Sequence record: NC_028903.1
Length of the DNA: 64,000 nt
Direction: 5' to 3' (one strand)
Source of the DNA: Escherichia phage 172-1
Below are positions 3,928-61,248 of the stretch, one piece after another. The notes under the pieces are model-generated. The model did no database searches. It had not been told where the DNA came from and was given only the letters and a program-made list of their open reading frames with translations. The stretch's first letter is position 1. Every line of letters begins with the position of its first letter. The position numbers were made by a program, and so were the translations under genes.

Positions 3928-3996
3928 TGTCTTATTCCTTTTAGTGATAAGTTATATCGGGCAAGCCCATCAAGGTGACAGGCTTGAACAAATAAC

Positions 3997-4206
3997 TCAA
4001 TCAAGTAAACCGAATGACTTCCAACTGCGTAGAAGGATTGTACCATCATCCATAGTCACGCATAACTTTAGTAGTTTCTTATTGGCACTGCTTACCGTTG
4101 TAATTCGTCCGGTTGTGCATTTACCTTTATTGCTGTAAAGATATATAACACGACGGCCTAACAAACGAGATGGCGCTTTCTTAAACTCTGAAATATTAGT
4201 GATCAT
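3997..4206 (-). CDS. hypothetical protein
   Basis: 69 aa ORF in tightly packed operon. Confidence 0.4.
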   Translation of the reverse strand: MITNISEFKKAPSRLLGRRVIYLYSNKGKCTTGRITTVSSANKKLLKLCVTMDDGTILLRSWKSFGLLD

Positions 4207-41156: not shown

Positions 41157-41975
41157 TTACCAAGATTTGTCTAACCATGTCCAGTCGAACAGGTCTTCCG
41201 GAGTCTGACCAACAAAGAGCAGCCGAGCATTCTCAAGCATCTTCTCTTCATCTTCAGTATCGAACTTCTTATAATACTCCATTCGTACTATATGATACAT
41301 GGTCCATTTGTCTGTAACACCAGCCAACAACTTAGCTGCTGCTTTCTTCCCTACTCCTTGGCGTCGAAGCTGAAGCTTACCGCCCCACATAACTTCTTTA
41401 CGTTCTCCACATCCGGGGATATTATCTGTTCCATCTCCAATCAACATCTGATAGAAGAAGTTTTGCCATGAAACTAAATCAGATACATAGTGAGGAGGAA
41501 CTTCTTTCTGCCTTTCTCCACAAGCCCAACGGTAGTGCCATCCGGGAGTTATCAACAAATCTTTGTCTCTAGTACAGATGATAGTGTTCTTATCTCTACG
41601 TTGCCTTTCAGCTAGTGCATCATCAGCCTCTCTCCCAAATACATCTATGTATTCATATTTACCTTTAATATAATCACCAACATTTTGCCAGTGAAAAGGT
41701 CTTTCTCCGGGAGGTCTATTTGCCTTGTAGTCTTGCTGCTTAGCAACATCGAAACGGAAGTTACCACCTTCGCTGAAGTAGAACACAACCTTACTGCAAC
41801 CTGAGCGAGCAATGATAGTATCTATCTTGTACTGAAGTCGTTCAATCATGAAATTGTAATCAACTGGAACACGTCCTGTGTCAAGGAAAGGATGCTCCTG
41901 AGTAAGAGCACCCACTTCATATCGAAGAACGTCAGCATCCACTATAGCTACTTCAGGGAGCTTAACGTCTTCCAT
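41157..41975 (-). CDS. T7 gp6-like 5'-3' exonuclease
   Basis: 272 aa; YKANR and IGDGTDNIPG motifs as in T7 gene 6 / FEN-like nucleases. Confidence 0.6.
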   Translation of the reverse strand: MEDVKLPEVAIVDADVLRYEVGALTQEHPFLDTGRVPVDYNFMIERLQYKIDTIIARSGCSKVVFYFSEGGNFRFDVAKQQDYKANRPPGERPFHWQNVGDYIKGKYEYIDVFGREADDALAERQRRDKNTIICTRDKDLLITPGWHYRWACGERQKEVPPHYVSDLVSWQNFFYQMLIGDGTDNIPGCGERKEVMWGGKLQLRRQGVGKKAAAKLLAGVTDKWTMYHIVRMEYYKKFDTEDEEKMLENARLLFVGQTPEDLFDWTWLDKSW

Positions 41976-48051: not shown

Positions 48052-49896
48052 TTAGTGCGTATGCATCCAGTTGAGTCCAATCTGACAATCAGATGCCAGA
48101 GGACATTCCATGTTCAAATACTCACCAGCCTTCTTAACACAAAGCTCGGTGTGCTCTTTGAGTTTCTGTACATCATTACGATTAACTGAGAACTGGCCCT
48201 CATCATGCATATCAATTACCTTAGCACAACGAACTCCATCCTTCTCAATCCACTTGTTAAGGAACATCATAGCATATTTCATAACAACAGCACCAGCACA
48301 TTGCAGGAGAGTGTTAAGTGCTTTATGAACCATAACCTTACCAGTGGCATCTCGTCTCATTGTAATCTTACGACCATCAACACCAATCAAGTACCCTTGA
48401 GCTGCTTTCTCTGTCATACGATCAATGAGGATTGCAATACATGGGTTCTCTGCCAAGAAACGTGCTCGCATCACTGAACCTTCATCAGCCCCACCACCTA
48501 CAATTGAACCAAGCTTAGCATCACCAGCACCATAGTTGAATGCGTAGATAAACGTCTTAGCGTTGTCACGAGTAGGAAGACCAGCAAGTCTCTGGTTGTG
48601 GGAGTGGATATCACCTTCAAGGAGAATATCACGATACATAATAGCAGAAGCTAAACCACGTTCTGCCAGAGCTTTCTTAGCTGGATTATTCTCTTCTATT
48701 GCTTCAGCAAGCATATCCCTACACTCTTTAATGAGGTAGTGTGCGAGCATACGCAATTCTAATCCAGAACCATCATACCCTAAGAATACTTCTTTACCAG
48801 CGGGTATGTAATATTTGTAAGCACCTACAGGTTTGTCTTTCTTCCCCGGCTTACCTTTCTCATAAATTACGTTAGTACCTTTTCGTATATAACAACCATC
48901 AGGAACAACGTTAGTAATAACGAAAGGACGAGAGTGATCATCATCTGAGTTATAGTCAGACTCAAACAAACCGCGACACTCATGACCAAACAAACCACGG
49001 GAGGGAATATTAACCACGATACGATGTTTGAATCGAAAAGTCGGAGTAGCGCAGCTGTTAGCTTCTGCCGAAAGTTTACCATCTTCGCGTTCCTTTGCTA
49101 TAAGTCCACTGATAAGACCTAGCCTGTGAGCCGCTACAACGCGTCTCTTAAGCAAACTTCCGACACTCCCTAGCTCACCCCCTAACCCTTCTTCAAGAGT
49201 CTCCTCGAGGTTTGTAGGAGCTGTAGGCCACTTGTTTGAGGTAGCTAGTGCTATCTTAATCTCATCAAAAGTGATAGGTCTACGTCGGTTAGGATTTAAA
49301 CCTAAACCAAAAACATAAGCCTTCATGTAGTTCTTAGTTTTAAACCTAAAGTGCTTCTCTAAGAACTTTCTGATATCAGCGTCAACCATCTCGGCTGTCT
49401 GCTTCTGTTTAGAATTACCTCGCATCCAAGCTGAATACCATGCTTGGTATGTTCCATACTTTCGCATATCTTTCTTGATTTCAAAAGTATTCCAAGGTTT
49501 CTTTGATACGTTAAACTCTGGAGGAAGAAAACCCTCATCCATAAGGGCTTCTTTAACTCGTGCATCTTTCGATGGGTCAAAGTCCACGTATTCAACACAG
49601 GTGAATGCTCCACCAATGTCCTCTCTCTTAAGTCCAACTCTATCACAATAGGCTTGAGGCCACTTCTGTAAAGCTCCAGACTTCTTAAATGGCTTCATAT
49701 AAGTAGAGCCATCTAATCTCATCTTAGGTAAGAGAGGAATTAATTCTTTGTCAATATTAACAATAATCTCTTTAAGGAGGTGAACATACCACCGAGCATT
49801 TCTTTGGTTGAAACTCACTCCGTGCTTCGCTTGCTTAGAGATTATATCAGCGACAGTCATCTCTGTCAAAAATGGGAGAGCGTCCGGGTTGCTCAC
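48052..49896 (-). CDS. family A DNA polymerase, polymerase domain only
   Basis: 614 aa; motif A DGSGLELRMLAHY, motif B RDNAKTFIYAFNYGAG, motif C HDE; no exonuclease motifs in N-terminus. Confidence 0.85.
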   Translation of the reverse strand: MSNPDALPFLTEMTVADIISKQAKHGVSFNQRNARWYVHLLKEIIVNIDKELIPLLPKMRLDGSTYMKPFKKSGALQKWPQAYCDRVGLKREDIGGAFTCVEYVDFDPSKDARVKEALMDEGFLPPEFNVSKKPWNTFEIKKDMRKYGTYQAWYSAWMRGNSKQKQTAEMVDADIRKFLEKHFRFKTKNYMKAYVFGLGLNPNRRRPITFDEIKIALATSNKWPTAPTNLEETLEEGLGGELGSVGSLLKRRVVAAHRLGLISGLIAKEREDGKLSAEANSCATPTFRFKHRIVVNIPSRGLFGHECRGLFESDYNSDDDHSRPFVITNVVPDGCYIRKGTNVIYEKGKPGKKDKPVGAYKYYIPAGKEVFLGYDGSGLELRMLAHYLIKECRDMLAEAIEENNPAKKALAERGLASAIMYRDILLEGDIHSHNQRLAGLPTRDNAKTFIYAFNYGAGDAKLGSIVGGGADEGSVMRARFLAENPCIAILIDRMTEKAAQGYLIGVDGRKITMRRDATGKVMVHKALNTLLQCAGAVVMKYAMMFLNKWIEKDGVRCAKVIDMHDEGQFSVNRNDVQKLKEHTELCVKKAGEYLNMECPLASDCQIGLNWMHTH

Positions 49897-49912: not shown

Positions 49913-50335
49913 TTATTGGTAAATCAAATCCGTAAATGCTTGATTGTCTTCTATCACATCTAACACGGTAGCTTCATAACTGTAAGCCCTAACCGCCCCG
50001 TTAACAACTATCCGAGGAGTAGGTGGAGGTGGTGCATGGTTAGCCCTAGCTTCACGAGGTTGCTCTCGTACTAAATGAGCCACAACCCTTTGGTTAGCGA
50101 CTTCTTCTCTTTCTCGAATAGCTCTCTGAATGTAAGCTAACTTCATACCCCAAACTTCTTCAAACTCTTGAGGGTGTTTATCGCTGATAACTACATACTG
50201 ACGTTCAGGAATACCAGAGCGAATCTCTGACAAAAGCTCATGGAACAAATCAAGTTCATGTTCAGTGAGATTCATTTCGATATCATCCCACTTGAGAACT
50301 AGGAATCTGTTTTGGTGTCTAGCTGGTAATGGCAT
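49913..50335 (-). CDS. hypothetical protein
   Basis: 140 aa. Confidence 0.4.
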   Translation of the reverse strand: MPLPARHQNRFLVLKWDDIEMNLTEHELDLFHELLSEIRSGIPERQYVVISDKHPQEFEEVWGMKLAYIQRAIREREEVANQRVVAHLVREQPREARANHAPPPPTPRIVVNGAVRAYSYEATVLDVIEDNQAFTDLIYQ

Positions 50336-50498
50336 TCTACTCCACCTCTACTCTAACGTAAGTTCTCTCGCCAACATCATCTTTCCAGACCCATGCCTTG
50401 GCATCTTCTTCAGACTTAAAAGCTTTCACAACGCTGTATCCACCTTCCCATTCATCACCGAACCAGCGCTGTCCTACGTAAACATATTCTTTCATTAT

Positions 50499-50774
50499 TT
50501 AACCTTTTGGGAATGGCATTAAAGATTCCATAGCAGATTTAATTTCGCTATTGATTCGAGCATCTCGATAAGAGATAAACTTACCTTTGCTATCTCGTAA
50601 CATCACATGGGTTCTAGCTGTTACGTGGGGAAGTAATGTAATACTAGTTGGGATAGTGTCAATCCCTACAGAAAATTTGTCAATAGTCTTGCTTTCACTT
50701 AACAGATAAGACCAAGTTTGCTTCGGATGGTTAGGGTATGTGTCTCGAATTTGAACCATAGCTAACTTATTCAT
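50499..50774 (-). CDS. small protein, GKFISY/PFPKG paralog family (member 2)
   Basis: 91 aa; shares ...GKFISY...PFPKG C-terminus with adjacent gene. Confidence 0.45.
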   Translation of the reverse strand: MNKLAMVQIRDTYPNHPKQTWSYLLSESKTIDKFSVGIDTIPTSITLLPHVTARTHVMLRDSKGKFISYRDARINSEIKSAMESLMPFPKG

Positions 50775-50775
50775 A

Positions 50776-51027
50776 TTAAACTCCTTTAGGGAATGGGATG
50801 AGGTTTTCTACTGCAACACGGAACTCTTTCTCTACGTTTTTATTCTTATAAGAAATGAATTTACCATCAGCCCCACGGAGGATTACGTTAGTACGAGCTG
50901 TTTTTGGGTTATGACCAATCTGGTTTGCAATAATATTAGCAATGCCGTGGTTATTGGTAAATTTCCATTTAACCATACGATTGTTAGACATTACATCAAT
51001 GATATTTACAGATTTTACAATAGACAT
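50776..51027 (-). CDS. small protein, GKFISY/PFPKG paralog family (member 1)
   Basis: 83 aa; tandem paralog. Confidence 0.45.
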   Translation of the reverse strand: MSIVKSVNIIDVMSNNRMVKWKFTNNHGIANIIANQIGHNPKTARTNVILRGADGKFISYKNKNVEKEFRVAVENLIPFPKGV

Positions 51028-51061
51028 ATTTATTACCTAAGAAGTTTAATTTGGTTTATAT

Positions 51062-51090
51062 AAAAGAAAAGGCCACCCATTTGGGTAGCC
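51062..51090 (-). terminator. rho-independent terminator
   Basis: GGCUACCC / GGGUGGCC stem followed by UUUUCUUUU on minus transcript. Confidence 0.5.
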
Positions 51091-51095
51091 TCATA

Positions 51096-51419
51096 TTACG
51101 ATGAGCTTAAAGCTCCTTTTCGCTTAGCAGCACCAGCTGCTTTTCCAGCTCGATTACCACTTTTGCCGCCGTTTGAACGGTTTGAGCTGACTGATTCAAC
51201 ACGTAAGTTGCTTGACGCATTAGAGCCTCCAGACTTGACAGCTCGTTTGTGTCCAACATCTTTACCTCTGACAGCAGCTTTTCCATCGCGCTTTTCAACG
51301 ATGCGACGTGCACGGTGGCGCTGAGCATCTCCGCTCTTGCTCCCAACGCCTGTCTCACCACGGGCAATTGCGGTACGTCTTTCTTGTGCATAATCTCTCT
51401 TTCCTACATGATCTGCCAT
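51096..51419 (-). CDS. basic low-complexity protein (possibly nucleic-acid binding)
   Basis: 107 aa, R/K/G/A-rich; own promoter and AAGGAG RBS. Confidence 0.4.
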   Translation of the reverse strand: MADHVGKRDYAQERRTAIARGETGVGSKSGDAQRHRARRIVEKRDGKAAVRGKDVGHKRAVKSGGSNASSNLRVESVSSNRSNGGKSGNRAGKAAGAAKRKGALSSS

Positions 51420-51455: not shown

Positions 51456-51466
51456 TATACATTATA
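51456..51466 (-). promoter_or_regulatory. phage promoter core TATAATGTATA (leftward)
   Basis: 37 nt upstream of ATG 51419. Confidence 0.5.
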
Positions 51467-51475
51467 AGTTGCTGT

Positions 51476-52213
51476 TTAAGCTTTCTTTTCCATTGCTTTA
51501 ACAATAGCTTTACAGAAACCAGAACGAACAATGTCATCTGATTCGCCGTCTACAATCTCAGCGAACTCATACAGATCATGTTCATCAATAAAGTTAGTAG
51601 CCCAAGTAAGACCACTCTCACGACCACGCATATCATGCTGGTTAGTGTCACCCATGCAGAACAATTGAGAGGTTTCTCCCAATCGAGTCATGATTGAGAA
51701 GGCTTCATCTTTAGTGGTGTTCTGGAACTCATCTACGATAACAATAGCATCGTTGAAAGAACGACCACGGAGATACTCCAGAGGTACGAACTCAATATTA
51801 CTGTTACCGAGCTGGCATTCATAGAACCCTTTACCATATCGCTGAGTAATAACATCAATGATAGGCATCAAATATGGTTCAAACTTCTCACGCATCCCTC
51901 CCGGAAGCAACCCAAGAGAATTACCCATGCCGACCGAAGGGCGACTCAGGATAATCTTCTGAATCTTACCACTCTTCAGTGCATCGATAACCGTGGAAGT
52001 GATTACAAAGGTCTTACCACAGCCCGCAGGAGCGTCTGTGAACACAACTTGTTTAGTCTTGATAGCATTGAGCAGTTCAGACTGGAACTGGTTCTGAGGG
52101 ACTACAGGCTTTGCTAAAACCACCTCTTCAAACTCGCGCTTACCCTTACGAGTGACAAGTACTTCCCGACGAAGGTCTTTCCGTGATTCTTTCCGTGATT
52201 GACGACGACTCAT
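51476..52213 (-). CDS. phoH: PhoH-like ATPase
   Basis: 245 aa; Walker A PAGCGKTF, IVDEFQN, and GDTNQ motifs. Confidence 0.8.
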   Translation of the reverse strand: MSRRQSRKESRKDLRREVLVTRKGKREFEEVVLAKPVVPQNQFQSELLNAIKTKQVVFTDAPAGCGKTFVITSTVIDALKSGKIQKIILSRPSVGMGNSLGLLPGGMREKFEPYLMPIIDVITQRYGKGFYECQLGNSNIEFVPLEYLRGRSFNDAIVIVDEFQNTTKDEAFSIMTRLGETSQLFCMGDTNQHDMRGRESGLTWATNFIDEHDLYEFAEIVDGESDDIVRSGFCKAIVKAMEKKA

Positions 52214-54126: not shown

Positions 54127-54336
54127 TTAATATTCTTTTACATAATAAACCACTAAGGTTCCCATCTCTGACAATGTTGATTTATGTAAGCTTACTTTAC
54201 TATAAATCTTTGGGGCCATCTTAAGAGCCTTCTTAAAACGGCGAGCATCTTTACGAGTAGCAAAGTGCTCTGTAACAGGTATAGCCGGGTCTTGGTAGAG
54301 GTAATATACCACCGTCCAATATTTTTTCATAATCAA
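54127..54336 (-). CDS. small protein, TRxxAR/YY paralog family (member 4)
   Basis: 69 aa; ATRKDARRFKKALK core and C-terminal YY-type ending. Confidence 0.45.
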   Translation of the reverse strand: MIMKKYWTVVYYLYQDPAIPVTEHFATRKDARRFKKALKMAPKIYSKVSLHKSTLSEMGTLVVYYVKEY

Positions 54337-54605
54337 ACACCTAGGGCAGTAGTTAAGAATGCTTTCAGGTTTGCTTCGGTCTGCATACCAGAGAGACTAT
54401 AGTGTGCACCACTATTACGGTCAGGTACAACGAAAGCAGGGATGCTTCTTACACCATACTTAACAGCTTGTTCACGACCATCACCTTCAAGGATGTTAAT
54501 CTCTTCTACTTCTACATCGAACTCCTTAACAACCTTCTCAAAGGTAGGAGCCATTGCTTTACATGGAGCACACTGATCACTATAAAACTTAATCACTTTA
54601 GACAT
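54333..54605 (-). CDS. thioredoxin/glutaredoxin-like protein
   Basis: Start at ATG 54603-54605 (MSKVIKFYSDQCAPCK...); CxxC active site. Confidence 0.55.
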   Translation of the reverse strand: MSKVIKFYSDQCAPCKAMAPTFEKVVKEFDVEVEEINILEGDGREQAVKYGVRSIPAFVVPDRNSGAHYSLSGMQTEANLKAFLTTALGV

Positions 54606-54795
54606 TCTATTCCTTGTTAATAAACAGGTTGATATGACGTTGGGTAGCAGGAACAACAATAAAAGATTTATACTGACCTTTTGCTAAGTCATGAGCAATC
54701 TTCTTTGTCTGACCAAGACCCATCACACAGCCACTAACAATAATGGCGTGTGCTTGCAACTCTTCAGGGAGTTTTAGTTTCATTCTTCAGGTTCC

Positions 54796-57009: not shown

Positions 57010-57543
57010 TTACACACCCTTAGATGCAACAACACCTTCAGAGTTATTATAACGACCCTTCACTGCATAGGAATGTTCCCCTGCATGAGAGTGCTCAAAC
57101 ATCACCATCTGACCAACACGCATACCAGCACGAACTCGTAAGCTATGATGCTTGGTTACGTTGTGGAATTCAAACGTCAGCTTACTGCTATTAAATCCAG
57201 CATCAGCCCATCCAGCATGTAGGTGGTTCAAACCACAACGAGCCATAGATGAACGAAGAACAAACAGGCTTGAGATATTATCTGGAAGATTAAACTCCTC
57301 CATGGAGTGAGCCAAGAAGAACTGACCCGGAGTGATAACCAAACCCTCTTCAGGAATCTTTACTTCCTTCCACTGAAGATTTTCTTTCGCATCAATATCA
57401 ACGATGCCATCAGCCTGTTCTTCAACAAGGATAGTATCACCAATACGGATATCCACACTAGCAGCGTTAACATACTTATGCTCCGCATCCAGATAGCCAT
57501 TGTCAATTACATCGTGCAGTTCAACACTTCCTAGTAAACTCAT
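57010..57543 (-). CDS. dcd: dCTP deaminase (dUTPase-fold)
   Basis: 177 aa; ASVDIRIG, RSSMARCGL, AGWADAGF and YNNSEGVVASK align with the recalled E. coli Dcd sequence. Confidence 0.7.
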   Translation of the reverse strand: MSLLGSVELHDVIDNGYLDAEHKYVNAASVDIRIGDTILVEEQADGIVDIDAKENLQWKEVKIPEEGLVITPGQFFLAHSMEEFNLPDNISSLFVLRSSMARCGLNHLHAGWADAGFNSSKLTFEFHNVTKHHSLRVRAGMRVGQMVMFEHSHAGEHSYAVKGRYNNSEGVVASKGV

Positions 57544-57552
57544 TCTTATTCC

Positions 57553-58908
57553 TTAGTTATTTGTTTCCATGTCAAAAGAGATTCCACGACCCGCTTCATC
57601 GGCAAACCGAACTGTACGGGTTTGAGGCTGCAATACTTCAGGGTTATCAGCAACAAAGCGATCAGCGAGACTGCGGCTGACGGTCTCAGCTAATTCACCA
57701 TGAGAAGGGATATTAAGATCGGCGAGATTATCAACCACATCTTGGGCCACGTCTTCATCAGTCCATACAGCCCTAACAGGTGCGTTGAAACTCTGACCAG
57801 AGAACTGGTGACGGCTAACAGTCAAACCATTTGATTGACCATTAGAACGTCTAGACAACCACTGCTCAAATGAATCGCCAGTAACACCAAGAGCTTCTTC
57901 AAAAGATGTTCTACGAGTAGAGCTTAGATTTCGTGCTTCGTTTGCTCGACGTCTTGCAGGGGCTACAAACACCCCTTCAACTGCATTGTGCCGATTAGGT
58001 TCATCTTCTCGACCAAGGAGATCTCCTCCTGTATTAGTTGTTAAGTTTGTCAACCCTTCAGACCAATATGCACGAATCTGGCTAGAGCCATGAACACTTG
58101 ACATTAACTGAATCTCTTCGTAAGGTATTCCAAAGAATAGACTCATGTCTCGGTTAACACAGTATTGAGCACTTGTTGTATCCTCAATAAGAGAAACCTG
58201 ACCTAATCCATTAACCAGATGACTAACTGGCTGAGGTGTAGGAAGGTATCGAGTTTGGGCCATATATTGATATGCAACAGATGGAGCTGAGAATCTTAAC
58301 ACTTGTGAATTAGGCCACTTTTTGTGAACGTATCTGATTTCACGACTAGAAACAACCACAGGGCAAGGAGCGGTCATAGCTAAATATCCATGAGGAGTCA
58401 TGAATAGGTTGTCAAGAGTCATCGCACCACGGCACATCATAGGAAAATTATCCAATACCTCTTCAATAGAAGTAGGATAATTAAACATGAATTGAATGCG
58501 GGTTCCATTCCACTGAAACTCAATAATATCAGTGAATGTTAATTGAGAACCCCCAGCATATGATTCGTTTGTAGCTTCAGCAAGAAGGGATGCATACTCG
58601 ATATCTTGTGATTCAAGCCACTCTTTCACATTGCTTTCAATCTCTCGTCCAAGAGCTTGCCAATGATCAACTGTAGTGAAAGTATTTTGAGTCCCTGGCG
58701 TCTGTCCTCTGACAACGAAGATATCAATATCGTGAGGTGCTATGTTATTAAGCACGGCATCACGAACAGCCCCACCAGTAATGATAGGGCAAATGCCGTC
58801 TGGAATCAAGTTGTTGTTAATCAACTGTTCAATGAAGTGACGACCAACAGTGATATCAGGTTGTTGAGCAACCTTATCTTCAATTCGGTTAATCGGGATA
58901 ACAATCAT
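57553..58908 (-). CDS. nucleotidyltransferase, tRNA-NT/poly(A) polymerase head-domain family
   Basis: Start at ATG 58906-58908; ITGGAVRDAVLNNIAPHDIDIFV = GGxVRD...DxD pol-beta signature; C-terminal ~300 aa unrecognised. Confidence 0.55.
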   Translation of the reverse strand: MIVIPINRIEDKVAQQPDITVGRHFIEQLINNNLIPDGICPIITGGAVRDAVLNNIAPHDIDIFVVRGQTPGTQNTFTTVDHWQALGREIESNVKEWLESQDIEYASLLAEATNESYAGGSQLTFTDIIEFQWNGTRIQFMFNYPTSIEEVLDNFPMMCRGAMTLDNLFMTPHGYLAMTAPCPVVVSSREIRYVHKKWPNSQVLRFSAPSVAYQYMAQTRYLPTPQPVSHLVNGLGQVSLIEDTTSAQYCVNRDMSLFFGIPYEEIQLMSSVHGSSQIRAYWSEGLTNLTTNTGGDLLGREDEPNRHNAVEGVFVAPARRRANEARNLSSTRRTSFEEALGVTGDSFEQWLSRRSNGQSNGLTVSRHQFSGQSFNAPVRAVWTDEDVAQDVVDNLADLNIPSHGELAETVSRSLADRFVADNPEVLQPQTRTVRFADEAGRGISFDMETNN

Positions 58909-58909
58909 T

Positions 58910-59464
58910 TTACATTTTCCAATATAATGAAGGTGGGTCGTAAGGGTCAAATCCCGTGAGTTCACACAAGTATTTATAAACCTTAACGGTTAAGTTAACG
59001 TCCTGTTCACAGTAAGTAAACATATCTTCAGTGAAAGCATCCCATGCTTCCTCTTGCTCACCGTAGTCTCCTTTAAGTTCCTCTAAGAACTCACCCCATT
59101 GCTTCAAACCATGACCTCTTGGGCCATGTCTAGGGTCACCTTTCGGATACTCAGGACTGTCACCAATACGGTCAGGTTTAAGATATCGACTAAGACACAA
59201 GGTGTCGAAGACGTTAAAACGATAGTCGATCAGATTGGGATACATCTTCTTCAGAGCACAAAGGTCGAAGTCAATAATATTATGACCTACGAGCACATCA
59301 GCTTCTGTAAGTTTACGAATCCCATCTTCAATTTGGTGAGGCCGATAGCCCCACCTTTCACCAGTTTCAACATCGAAGATGTAAATACACCACACTTTAG
59401 TTATGTCATCGTACAGTGCATTACTCTCGATATCAAATGCAAACACTTTCTTTTTCTTTACCAC
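58910..59464 (-). CDS. DnaQ-like 3'-5' exonuclease (stand-alone proofreading domain)
   Basis: 184 aa; Exo I FDIES, Exo II HNIIDFD, Exo III YCEQDV motifs. Confidence 0.7.
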
Positions 59465-61248
59465 GGTGAAGCTCCATCTGCTTGATTGACGAGAGAAGCT
59501 GCATCCTCTCCGTTAGTCAAAACGAATGGATTATCTTCATCAACTTCAAAGTCTTCCCTTTCTACAAGTCTACCGGTTTCGCTGATATACTTAGTATAAC
59601 AGACACCCGTCTGACCATAGTTACGTTCTTTCAGTAATCGAATGACTGAGAGGTTCTTAGCTAAGCCGTCAGCTTGCTTATCACGCTCAAAGCCAATGAT
59701 ACACTGACACCAACGCATAAGAGAACGAGAGCCAGTGAACTGTACTTCACGTACCTGTCCACCTTCTTCGTGAGGAGCACCACCTGCCGGAGCATTAAGG
59801 TGAGATAGCACGAAAGCGGTAAAGTCTAATTCTTTACACATACCAGCAAGCTCGGAAGCAATCTTACTGATTTCAGTGTTAATCTCTGAAGGTGTTAAAT
59901 GAGATACCAGAGCGGTAATGTTATCAAGAATGATGAACTTACACTGGTTTTCAACTACCCAGAAACGGATACACTGTTTAATATCTTCCCATTCGTTCTG
60001 CCCAAAGTTGTCATACAAGAAGAATTTGTCTGCATAACGAAGTGCTTCATTACGCAAATCCTCCTCGTCATATTCAACATCGGGTCGGTGGAAAGGAATT
60101 GATGCTGACTTACCAGCGATGTTCTTAACAGACATGCCTACCTTCTCTTCCAAGAAGAAGCCACCCCCATTAAAGCCATGCTCTAAGCACAGATGAGCAA
60201 CCAGTTCGTGAGCAATTAGTGTTTTACCACTACCTACACCACCACCGATGGCTACTACCTCTCCCCATCGAATACCGAAGGTCATCTCATTAAGAGTTTT
60301 CCACGGATATGGAATACCCCACTCCGCTTTCTTCAGAGCATCATCAAGGCAATCAAAGATTGTTACAGCACCAGCAGGAGATTCCCGCTTTGCTGAATAC
60401 TTGAGAATGTTGAATAACTCTTGACCACGACCAGACAGAAGCATGTCATTCGCATCCTTAATCTCTTTCTCCACACCGTTGTATGGGAAAGTTCCTTTAG
60501 GAATACGAGCAAACTTGACATGAGGGAATAAAGAACGACCTTTTGTTAAAGCTATCTCACCTGCATCGTCATTGTCCATGCAGAGCACAACCTCCTCAAA
60601 ACCATTTACGAAGTCTCGATTACGAGACAACACAGAAGAGATTGAACCTGCACCGAACGGTAAAGAAACACATGCTGGCTTAATATTTGTTGCATTTGTA
60701 AAAGCTGTAAGGACATGGAAACCAGACATACAAGATAGCGGGTCTTCAAAAATAAACAGCTTCTTGTTGTACACATCTCCACGTTGAGCTTGTGCCATAC
60801 CAAATAAGTCTGCTTCTTTCACACTGCCAACGTAATAAAACTTCTTACTATCTAGCAGCTTAACCTCGTAACCAACAATGTTTCCATCACGTTCACGAGG
60901 AAAGAAGTAGCTGTCTGGAGTCTGACCATCAGTCTGACTTAGACCAATGCGACACTCAAAACGCTCTGATACAGCTTTAGGGATTAAACGTCGAGTAAGT
61001 TCACCCTGAGGAAGCTCTAAGCAATCATCTAAGACTTCTCTCAATTCTTCAGGGGATAACTCTTTCTTCTCGTTTGGAGTGGGTGTAGTGCCCTTTTCGA
61101 ACACTTCGTAATTCCCACAACGGTTACAACTTCCCCACTCCTCACCTGTCTCTTCGTTACGGAAGAGAATCATGTGGTTGTGGGTTTTATCACGACCATG
61201 AGAGATACATTCCTTACAACCTGTGTCTCCCAAAATGATCTTTGACAT
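59458..61248 (-). CDS. T7 gp4-like primase-helicase
   Basis: 596 aa; N-terminal Cys4 zinc ribbon, TOPRIM region, Walker [10 protein letters not shown] and Walker B ILDN helicase motifs. Confidence 0.85.

Follow-up and report, generated by a model that had tools for sequence, protein, structure and literature searches.

Two tandem paralogs of the phage family phrog_6814 in the polymerase operon of an Escherichia phage of the genus Kuravirus

Two short adjacent genes precede the DNA polymerase gene in the stretch of Escherichia phage DNA analysed here (64,000 nucleotides, hereafter the window). A first-pass annotation of the sequence had taken them for tandem paralogs from an unknown family of about 85 residues. 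The locus raises three questions: whether the genes are truly related, how far their family extends, and what such proteins may do beside a replication machine. The pair encodes paralogous cytoplasmic α/β proteins of about 9–10 kDa, members of phrog_6814, a family confined to phages.

The two genes and their operon

Both open reading frames lie on the minus strand, exactly where the first-pass annotation had placed them:

50776..51027, minus strand: slot-1 paralog, 83 residues, ortholog of phiEco32 gp57 and of NJ01_066
50499..50774, minus strand: slot-2 paralog, 91 residues, ortholog of phiEco32 gp56 and of NJ01_065

BLASTP aligned the C-terminal 40 residues of the two proteins with E=1e-16, 22 identities (55%) and 32 positives (80%). 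The formal pairwise alignment, on which the annotation had made the relationship depend, is thus significant, and the aligned segment is the very motif that it had quoted, TART(N/H)V(I/M)LR..GKFISY(K/R)...(E/M)(N/S)L(I/M)PFPKG. The similarity had been seen in this C-terminal motif only. The profile search that had been suggested extends it to the full length, as slot-1 matches phrog_6814 with E=1.4e-39 (residues 1–83 on profile positions 1–86 of 86) and slot-2 with E=1.7e-36 (residues 1–91 on positions 1–85 of 86). Since both copies match end to end, the similarity takes in the N-terminal halves as well; overall identity in a MAFFT alignment is about 39–41%. By these alignments, the paralogy of the pair is statistically solid. 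A scan of all open reading frames of at least 40 residues with the family HMM returned these two members only in the window.

The window is from a Kuravirus (Gordonclarkvirinae). In this region, its identity is 98.6% with Escherichia phage NJ01 and about 87% with phiEco32, and the orthologs in these two phages (phi32_56 and phi32_57, NJ01_065 and NJ01_066) all carry the annotation 'hypothetical protein'. The label 'autotransporter adhesin' given to slot-1 in some records finds no support in the analysis. Both window proteins are basic (pI 10.35 and 9.75), with neither signal peptide nor transmembrane segment. The family members of phage SU10, gp53 and gp54, are not among the proteins in the SU10 virion proteomics table.

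The proposed location in the replication arm holds, as PhoH lies on one side of the pair and the DNA polymerase on the other, within the middle/replication cluster. The order on the minus strand is PhoH, gp58-like gene, 83-residue copy, 91-residue copy, 52-residue gene, 140-residue gene and DNA polymerase. The surrounding features are the following:

51476..52213, minus strand: PhoH, upstream of the gp58-like gene
51456..51464, minus strand: perfect TAATGTATA promoter element between PhoH and the gp58-like gene, phiEco32 gp36-sigma middle/late consensus
51096..51419, minus strand: gp58-like gene, 107 residues, phrog_4590, first gene of the operon
51069..51092, minus strand: GC-rich hairpin with T-run, terminator-like, between the gp58-like gene and slot-1
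49913..50495, minus strand: two small genes of 52 residues (phrog_17007) and 140 residues (phrog_11427), between the pair and the polymerase
48052..49896, minus strand: last large gene of the operon, a family-A DNA polymerase limited to the polymerase domain
58910..59464, minus strand: 3'-5' exonuclease subunit, a separate gene about 9 kb from the polymerase
41157..41975, minus strand: 5'-3' exonuclease, a separate gene

In phiEco32, gene 58 is one of six genes downstream of a gp36-dependent promoter with the consensus tAATGTAtA, and the polymerase/nucleotide-metabolism cluster is expressed as part of the middle class (PMC8948821). By its sequence, the TAATGTATA element is likely the start of the operon for the pair and the polymerase. 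The annotation of SU7 has a terminator at the position of the hairpin at 51069..51092; the pair would then be expressed through read-through, or the hairpin may be an RNA-stability element. The slot-2 ATG lies 1 nt past the slot-1 TAA, and its Shine-Dalgarno sequence, AAAGGAG, is contained in the slot-1 K-G-V codons, an arrangement indicating that the two genes are translationally coupled. The 52-residue gene starts 3 nt past the slot-2 stop; its presence and that of the 140-residue gene vary among relatives. The split polymerase architecture has been described for the whole group (PMC9965538). No single-strand binding protein was recognized among about 20 larger open reading frames of the replication arm (at least 70 residues) scanned against PHROGs, and Rfam gave no match between 47000 and 53000.

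The gp58-like gene is a conserved neighbour upstream of the family in Gordonclarkvirinae and in phage 7-11. Its product is very basic, highly conserved even in distant relatives and 7-11, and contains an HNH-like string, KDV(D/G)H..(K)SGGSN...NLR......NRS.GGKSG. It has no Pfam match; the homolog from metagenomic contig L044 matches an HNH-endonuclease PHROG with E=3.7e-5. A 94-residue open reading frame overlaps this gene in the +1 frame (51107..51391, minus strand) and is also open in the distant relatives L010, L012 and L003. Synonymous-codon shuffles gave P of about 0.2–0.3 in 15 of 16 homologs, so that an open frame is expected from the amino-acid composition, and it was dismissed as a compositional artefact.

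Further observations were made in the vicinity. The phage encodes a thioredoxin-domain protein at 54333..54659. A dCTP deaminase and a large nucleotidyltransferase are found among the replication genes (57010..58965, minus strand); according to the BASEL authors, such genes may mean an unrecognized DNA modification that explains restriction resistance (PMC11990801). Codons 10–19 of the polymerase gene contain a perfect sigma-70 consensus, TTGACA-N17-TATAAT with extended -10 TG (49841..49869, minus strand), in a stretch that also encodes the conserved polymerase residues LTEMTVADII. This consensus occurs in 15 of the 48 loci fetched, at the same spot of the polymerase wherever comparison with the annotation was possible, with one more match elsewhere in Pseudomonas phage tf. 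It may have arisen by chance, may serve in regulation or as a decoy, or may be a promoter associated with an origin. The RefSeq record of NJ01 (L002, NC_018835.1 45160..47028) has no CDS over the stretch matching the DNA polymerase gene; the gene seems to have been missed in annotation.

Extent of the family and its gene neighbourhood

Word-seeded searches of 5.8 billion proteins with the two sequences returned 40 and 50 clusters, all of 62–94 residues, without Pfam domains and from kuravirus-like contigs; the window proteins are 97–98% identical to database clusters. An exhaustive profile search of 1.84 billion representatives (E ≤0.001) gave 31 matches, 29 of which are standalone proteins of 79–107 residues. 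The two long profile matches, a kinesin-like repeat from a eukaryote (P0113) and a lectin-like repeat from a bacterium (P0114), were discarded, as was a weak match among PDB sequences (7zoi), since each consists of a generic β-hairpin string only. In INPHARED, the family is present in 97 phage records, of which 94 are named Escherichia or Shigella phages and 3 have names without a host genus; the hosts listed for these records are all E. coli or Shigella. A metagenome scan for more loci added no further lineage. Throughout these sequence collections, the family is small, restricted to phages and made of standalone proteins. Databases already contained the genes, and PHROGs lists their family as phrog_6814; the window adds one further member to it. 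No paper naming these genes or describing their paralogy was found in the literature searched. With respect to that literature, the paralogy, the constant/variable modular pattern with its module swap, the link to 7-11-type phages and the recurrent adjacency to replisome genes are new.

Two tandem copies are present in Kuravirus, Suseptimavirus, Nieuwekanaalvirus and one uncultured lineage, and a single copy in Bas94, which lacks slot-2, and in the uncultured relatives L003, L010/L012 and L044. At least one copy is therefore dispensable. An N-terminal signature, M-x-K-L/I-x-x-V/I-Q-I-R-D, is found in the second-slot proteins of Kuravirus and Suseptimavirus and in several single sequences from the profile search; the second-slot protein of KBNP1711 (Nieuwekanaalvirus) starts with a looser form, MSLVKTIQISD. 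Because this second-slot signature is common across genera, the duplication probably predates the split of Kuravirus, Suseptimavirus and Nieuwekanaalvirus.

Remote homologs were reached through a marginal match of the family HMM to an 88-residue open reading frame of Proteus phage J3S, two genes upstream of its polymerase. A homolog search with the J3S protein returned one cluster only; its relatives are found in Salmonella phage 7-11, Aeromonas phage BUCT695, Cronobacter phage GAP52 and PKM.Lu.22.1. A Grimontviridae profile built from five tblastn-derived sequences aligned with the family profile over 67 columns (hhalign Prob 94.4%, E=9.4e-8), and the Grimontviridae and phrog_6814 HMMs are reciprocal best matches. 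Like the family, the Grimontviridae proteins (7-11 gp065, J3S/Privateer, BUCT695 gp070, GAP52 gp062 and PKM.Lu.22.1) are encoded upstream of the polymerase, 0–1 genes away, and the 7-11 homolog lies downstream of a phi32_58-like gene, as the family does here. Both groups are of similar size and share an N-terminal strand ending in R/D-D/E-Y and a hairpin RTN(I/V)xVRDxxTGRF. The Grimontviridae proteins differ in being single-copy, in having W where the phrog_6814 family has Y/F, and in ending straight after the hairpin (RTN(I/V)xVRDxxTGRFxKW), without the C-terminal helix and PFP tail. As these last elements are present here and absent there, the two groups are regarded as a superfamily rather than one family. 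Polymerase identity between the five Grimontviridae genera and the window is only about 47%.

In all lineages that were examined, no more than 0–2 genes separate a family member from a gene of the replisome. In Kuravirus, Suseptimavirus, Nieuwekanaalvirus, Bas94 and uncultured relatives, the member precedes the PolA gene. Two library matches, among the weakest, are placed otherwise, one (P0116) between the primase-helicase and the PolA exonuclease subunit in contig L046, the other (P0117) directly upstream of the primase-helicase in contig L042. The genes carried as cargo between the family and the polymerase vary, with the ORFans gp54 and gp55 in Kuravirus, a MazG-like pyrophosphatase in Grimontviridae, and a DprA-like protein (phrog_768) in L012 and L044. 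This cargo slot occupies the following coordinates:

L012, 6474..7022
L044, 3210..3698
L035, 2758..3042

A constant and a variable half

The family core, as defined by the alignments, reads D11 ... T-A-R-T-N-V-x-x-R/K-G/D-x-x-G-K/R-F-I/V-S-Y/F ... L-x-P-F-P. Both window proteins contain the motif TARTNV-x2-R-x3-G(K/R)F(I/V)S(Y/F) ... L-x-PFP (alignments A1, A2 and A4). Its hairpin part is encoded at two places:

50848..50901, minus strand: slot-1 hairpin-motif codons, T43–Y60, TARTNVILRGADGKFISY, (nearly) invariant columns in alignments A1, A2 and A3
50568..50621, minus strand: slot-2 hairpin-motif codons, T52–Y69, TARTHVMLRDSKGKFISY, invariant columns R54, T55, G64 and S68 in alignment A4, and BLASTP

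The slot-1 codons of this motif are the sole nucleotide island that blastn still detects against SU7-type phages.

The structure prediction that had been suggested yielded the same element order, β-β-α-β-β-α, in the AlphaFold (AF2) models of both copies, with a pLDDT of 88.8 for slot-1 and 78.0 for slot-2. The slot-1 model matches the BFVD model of the 92-residue second-slot protein of phage KBNP1711 (TM 0.76, E=1e-7). Foldseek returned nothing but the family itself from BFVD and, for both models, no match with E<0.1 from the PDB (best E=0.13). As sequence and profile searches gave no relative in Pfam, NCBIfam or PDB sequences either, the family has no characterized relative by sequence or fold, and the view of it as an unknown family stands.

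Conservation was compared between the C-half, taken as the last 41 residues, and the N-half. The mean column entropy in 37 slot-1 orthologs is 1.45 bits in the N-half versus 0.28 in the C-half, with a hypervariable stretch at about residues 12–42; in 51 slot-2 orthologs, it is 0.49 versus 0.26. In the codon analysis, dN/dS in slot-1 is 0.46 for the N-half (dN 0.44, dS 0.96) and 0.09 for the C-half, and in slot-2 0.21 and 0.13, respectively; the dS of the C-half is 0.35–0.52 in both slots. With dN/dS well below 1, both are real coding genes under purifying selection. The C-half is nearly invariant even across members with N-halves that cannot be aligned. These sequence comparisons indicate that the C-halves are strongly constrained, and that the slot-1 N-half, with its deeper coalescence, is under relaxed constraint or diversifying.

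The two halves also assort independently of each other. Half-by-half typing reveals mosaics, with N-types 1, 2 and 3 all on C-type 13, and N-type 1 also on the SU7-type C-half. The metagenomic contig L039 is about 100% identical to KBNP1711 on both flanks, whereas positions ~3960-4150 (the intergenic region and the slot-1 N-half) are 74–96% identical to SU7 and 33–65% to KBNP1711. The right-hand breakpoint of this 190-bp patch falls inside the conserved motif. These patterns indicate that the slot-1 N-half is exchanged by recombination.

Homing-endonuclease genes are found in the same neighbourhood. In EcoN5, an HNH homing endonuclease gene is inserted at the junction of the gp58-like gene and slot-1 (window 51028..51095; L030 2314..2808). 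YW01 and SGF2 match the query region in two separate pieces, with an HNH gene annotated beneath, at a position that is approximate relative to the junction. Endonuclease genes also break up the polymerase gene of SU7 and Bas94, and that of KBNP1711 is annotated as two separate pieces. Given the HNH gene at this junction in EcoN5, the L039 patch could be a co-conversion tract instead of, or alongside, a selected exchange of modules.

Possible roles and comparison with known systems

The explanation preferred here, and proposed tentatively, is that the pair acts as a small replisome-associated accessory or adaptor, one half constant and used for docking, the other variable. The near-invariant C-half (hairpin, helix and PFP tail) would dock onto a conserved replication component, with PolA, which lacks the exonuclease, or the partners encoded apart from it as the most plausible targets. 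The N-half (β-β-α) would present a second, lineage-variable surface, and the duplication would have led to two specialized copies, a conserved slot-2 and a fast-evolving, recombining slot-1. We infer the binding, the identity of the partner and the role in replication alike. The proposal is made because a C-half that remains near-constant across lineages sharing little else fits an interface with a conserved partner, because the adjacency to genes for the polymerase, the exonuclease subunit or the primase-helicase recurs in three arrangements and two virus families, and because the remote homologs have kept their position upstream of the polymerase in five genera of Grimontviridae. Small ORFans rarely last that long unless important. 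The operon and the gp36-type middle promoter common to the pair and the polymerase, the translational coupling, the lack of signal peptide and transmembrane segment, and the absence of gp53 and gp54 from the SU10 virion table also point to an adaptor.

Several observations speak against it. The sequence searches and predicted models gave no homology or fold match to known replication factors, and at least one copy is dispensable, as seen in Bas94 and the single-copy relatives. A hypervariable slot-1 N-half that is swapped between backbones otherwise about 100% identical is what one more often sees in genes for host interaction or in an arms race. Much of the synteny could reflect descent from one collinear module, and scans with the family HMM detected no member beside the similarly split polymerase of Pseudomonas phage tf. 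The pI of family members ranges from 4.6 to 10.6, and there is thus no consistent nucleic-acid-binding charge.

A host-takeover or anti-defence binder is a possibility to be viewed with some doubt, although it is nearly as likely as the adaptor. The hairpin would clamp a conserved host protein, the N-half would be engaged in an arms race with a polymorphic host factor or immune sensor, and the tandem duplication would widen the target range. The high entropy and dN of the slot-1 N-half within a maintained fold, the presence of at least three N-types on one C-type, and a 190-bp patch replacing exactly the N-half in a KBNP1711-like backbone are all in keeping with such a binder. So are the variable copy number and the nature of the polymerase-upstream stretch, a variable cassette (MazG, DprA-like, gp54 or gp55). 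An antitoxin gene can sit within a replication gene cluster, for which T4 dmd provides the precedent. In addition, Gordonclarkvirinae are reported to be unusually resistant to most of the defence systems tested, with no inhibitor known (PMC11990801). However, the pair is of the middle class whereas the host-takeover genes of phiEco32 group in the early region (PMC8948821), and it has been kept beside replisome genes across phages of Escherichia, Salmonella, Proteus, Cronobacter and Aeromonas. The dN/dS of the N-half, at 0.46, is relaxed yet not above 1, the patch may result from homing-endonuclease co-conversion, and the solved structures to which Foldseek found no match with E<0.1 include anti-defence proteins.

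It is unlikely that the pair is a small nucleic-acid-binding regulator, be it a translational repressor or RNA-binder tuning the polymerase operon or a DNA-binder at the origin. T4 RegA offers a positional parallel, upstream of gene 43. The basic character of both window proteins, the polar or aromatic conserved residues on the β-hairpin (T, R, T, N, R, K, F, S, Y) and the tight coupling of the genes inside the polymerase operon would suit this role, but pI is not conserved and many members are acidic, down to 4.6. A weak sub-threshold Pfam match of the 91-residue copy only, to the dsRNA-binding domain DSRM_2 (PF24995, E=0.16), would also suit it, but the score of 12.9 bits falls well short of the 27-bit gathering threshold, and the elements are not predicted to follow the order α-β-β-β-α. 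Foldseek gave no match to RegA, dsRBD, KH or other RNA-binding folds.

That the open reading frames are nearly neutral by-products, kept with little function of their own by homing-endonuclease gene conversion and embedded ribosome-binding sites, is very improbable: the HNH gene at the EcoN5 junction, the split regions of YW01 and SGF2 and the C-terminal K-G(-V) codons that double as the Shine-Dalgarno sequence of the next gene are compatible with it, but C-half dN/dS values of 0.09–0.13 with dS of 0.35–0.52 denote purifying selection at the protein level, distant lineages keep the motif despite differing codons and downstream genes, and the AF2 models are confident.

The adaptor proposal may be carried further, in a form that is rather doubtful as a whole. 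The family would be a modular subunit, unrecognized so far, of the split family-A polymerase replisome in a phiEco32/7-11 supergroup of prolate podophages, with the hairpin and PFP tail as anchor, an exchangeable N-module that meets a variable host factor or evades an immune sensor monitoring replication, and a division of the pair into a constant and a variable copy. If the adaptor reading is true, the family would fill a gap in a little-studied replication machine, in which a family-A polymerase has both exonuclease activities on separate genes, in phages that are abundant, of broad host range and under development for therapy. The combination of constant and swappable halves would make a compact natural system for changing specificity by module exchange in phage accessory proteins. 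The practical gain at present is better annotation, as two 'hypothetical proteins' become one family with a defined core motif that reaches 7-11-like phages. The family is a solid and well-delimited ORFan family, with no evidence yet of anything categorically new.

Among known systems, the DNA-mimic uracil-DNA glycosylase inhibitors Ugi and p56 are strongly acidic, unlike the window proteins, and no chain of either is among the PDB matches listed by Foldseek for both models. Thioredoxin is the processivity factor of T7 gp5. The window proteins have neither thioredoxin fold nor CxxC; a processivity factor of this type was rejected, as neither protein contains any cysteine and there is no Pfam, NCBIfam or Foldseek match. 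The likeness to a T7-type replisome accessory would be a functional analogy only, that of a protein of about 10 kDa binding and modifying a family-A polymerase; like the T7 replisome, the window has a family-A polymerase and a gp4-type primase-helicase, the latter at 59458..61248. The gene neighbourhood is what points to this replisome accessory class.

T4 Dmd, the inhibitor of the RnlA and LsoA toxins, is like the family a small phage α/β protein from a replication cluster. It recurs among the best Foldseek matches of both models, with TM of 0.32–0.46 normalized to Dmd, far from significance. The matches to 5hy3_B and 5i8j (E=0.18–4.2, probability 0.07–0.41, query-normalized TM 0.31–0.34) are not significant, and a comparison of sequence profiles aligned one column (hhalign Prob 0.09%), so that the family is not a member of Dmd. 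By profile homology and synteny, it belongs with the 7-11 gp065-like proteins of Grimontviridae at the superfamily level. The closest correspondence is with phrog_6814 itself (phi32_56 and phi32_57, NJ01_065 and NJ01_066, SU10 gp53 and gp54), of which the window proteins are members, without difference and with a gene position that matches the annotated genomes.
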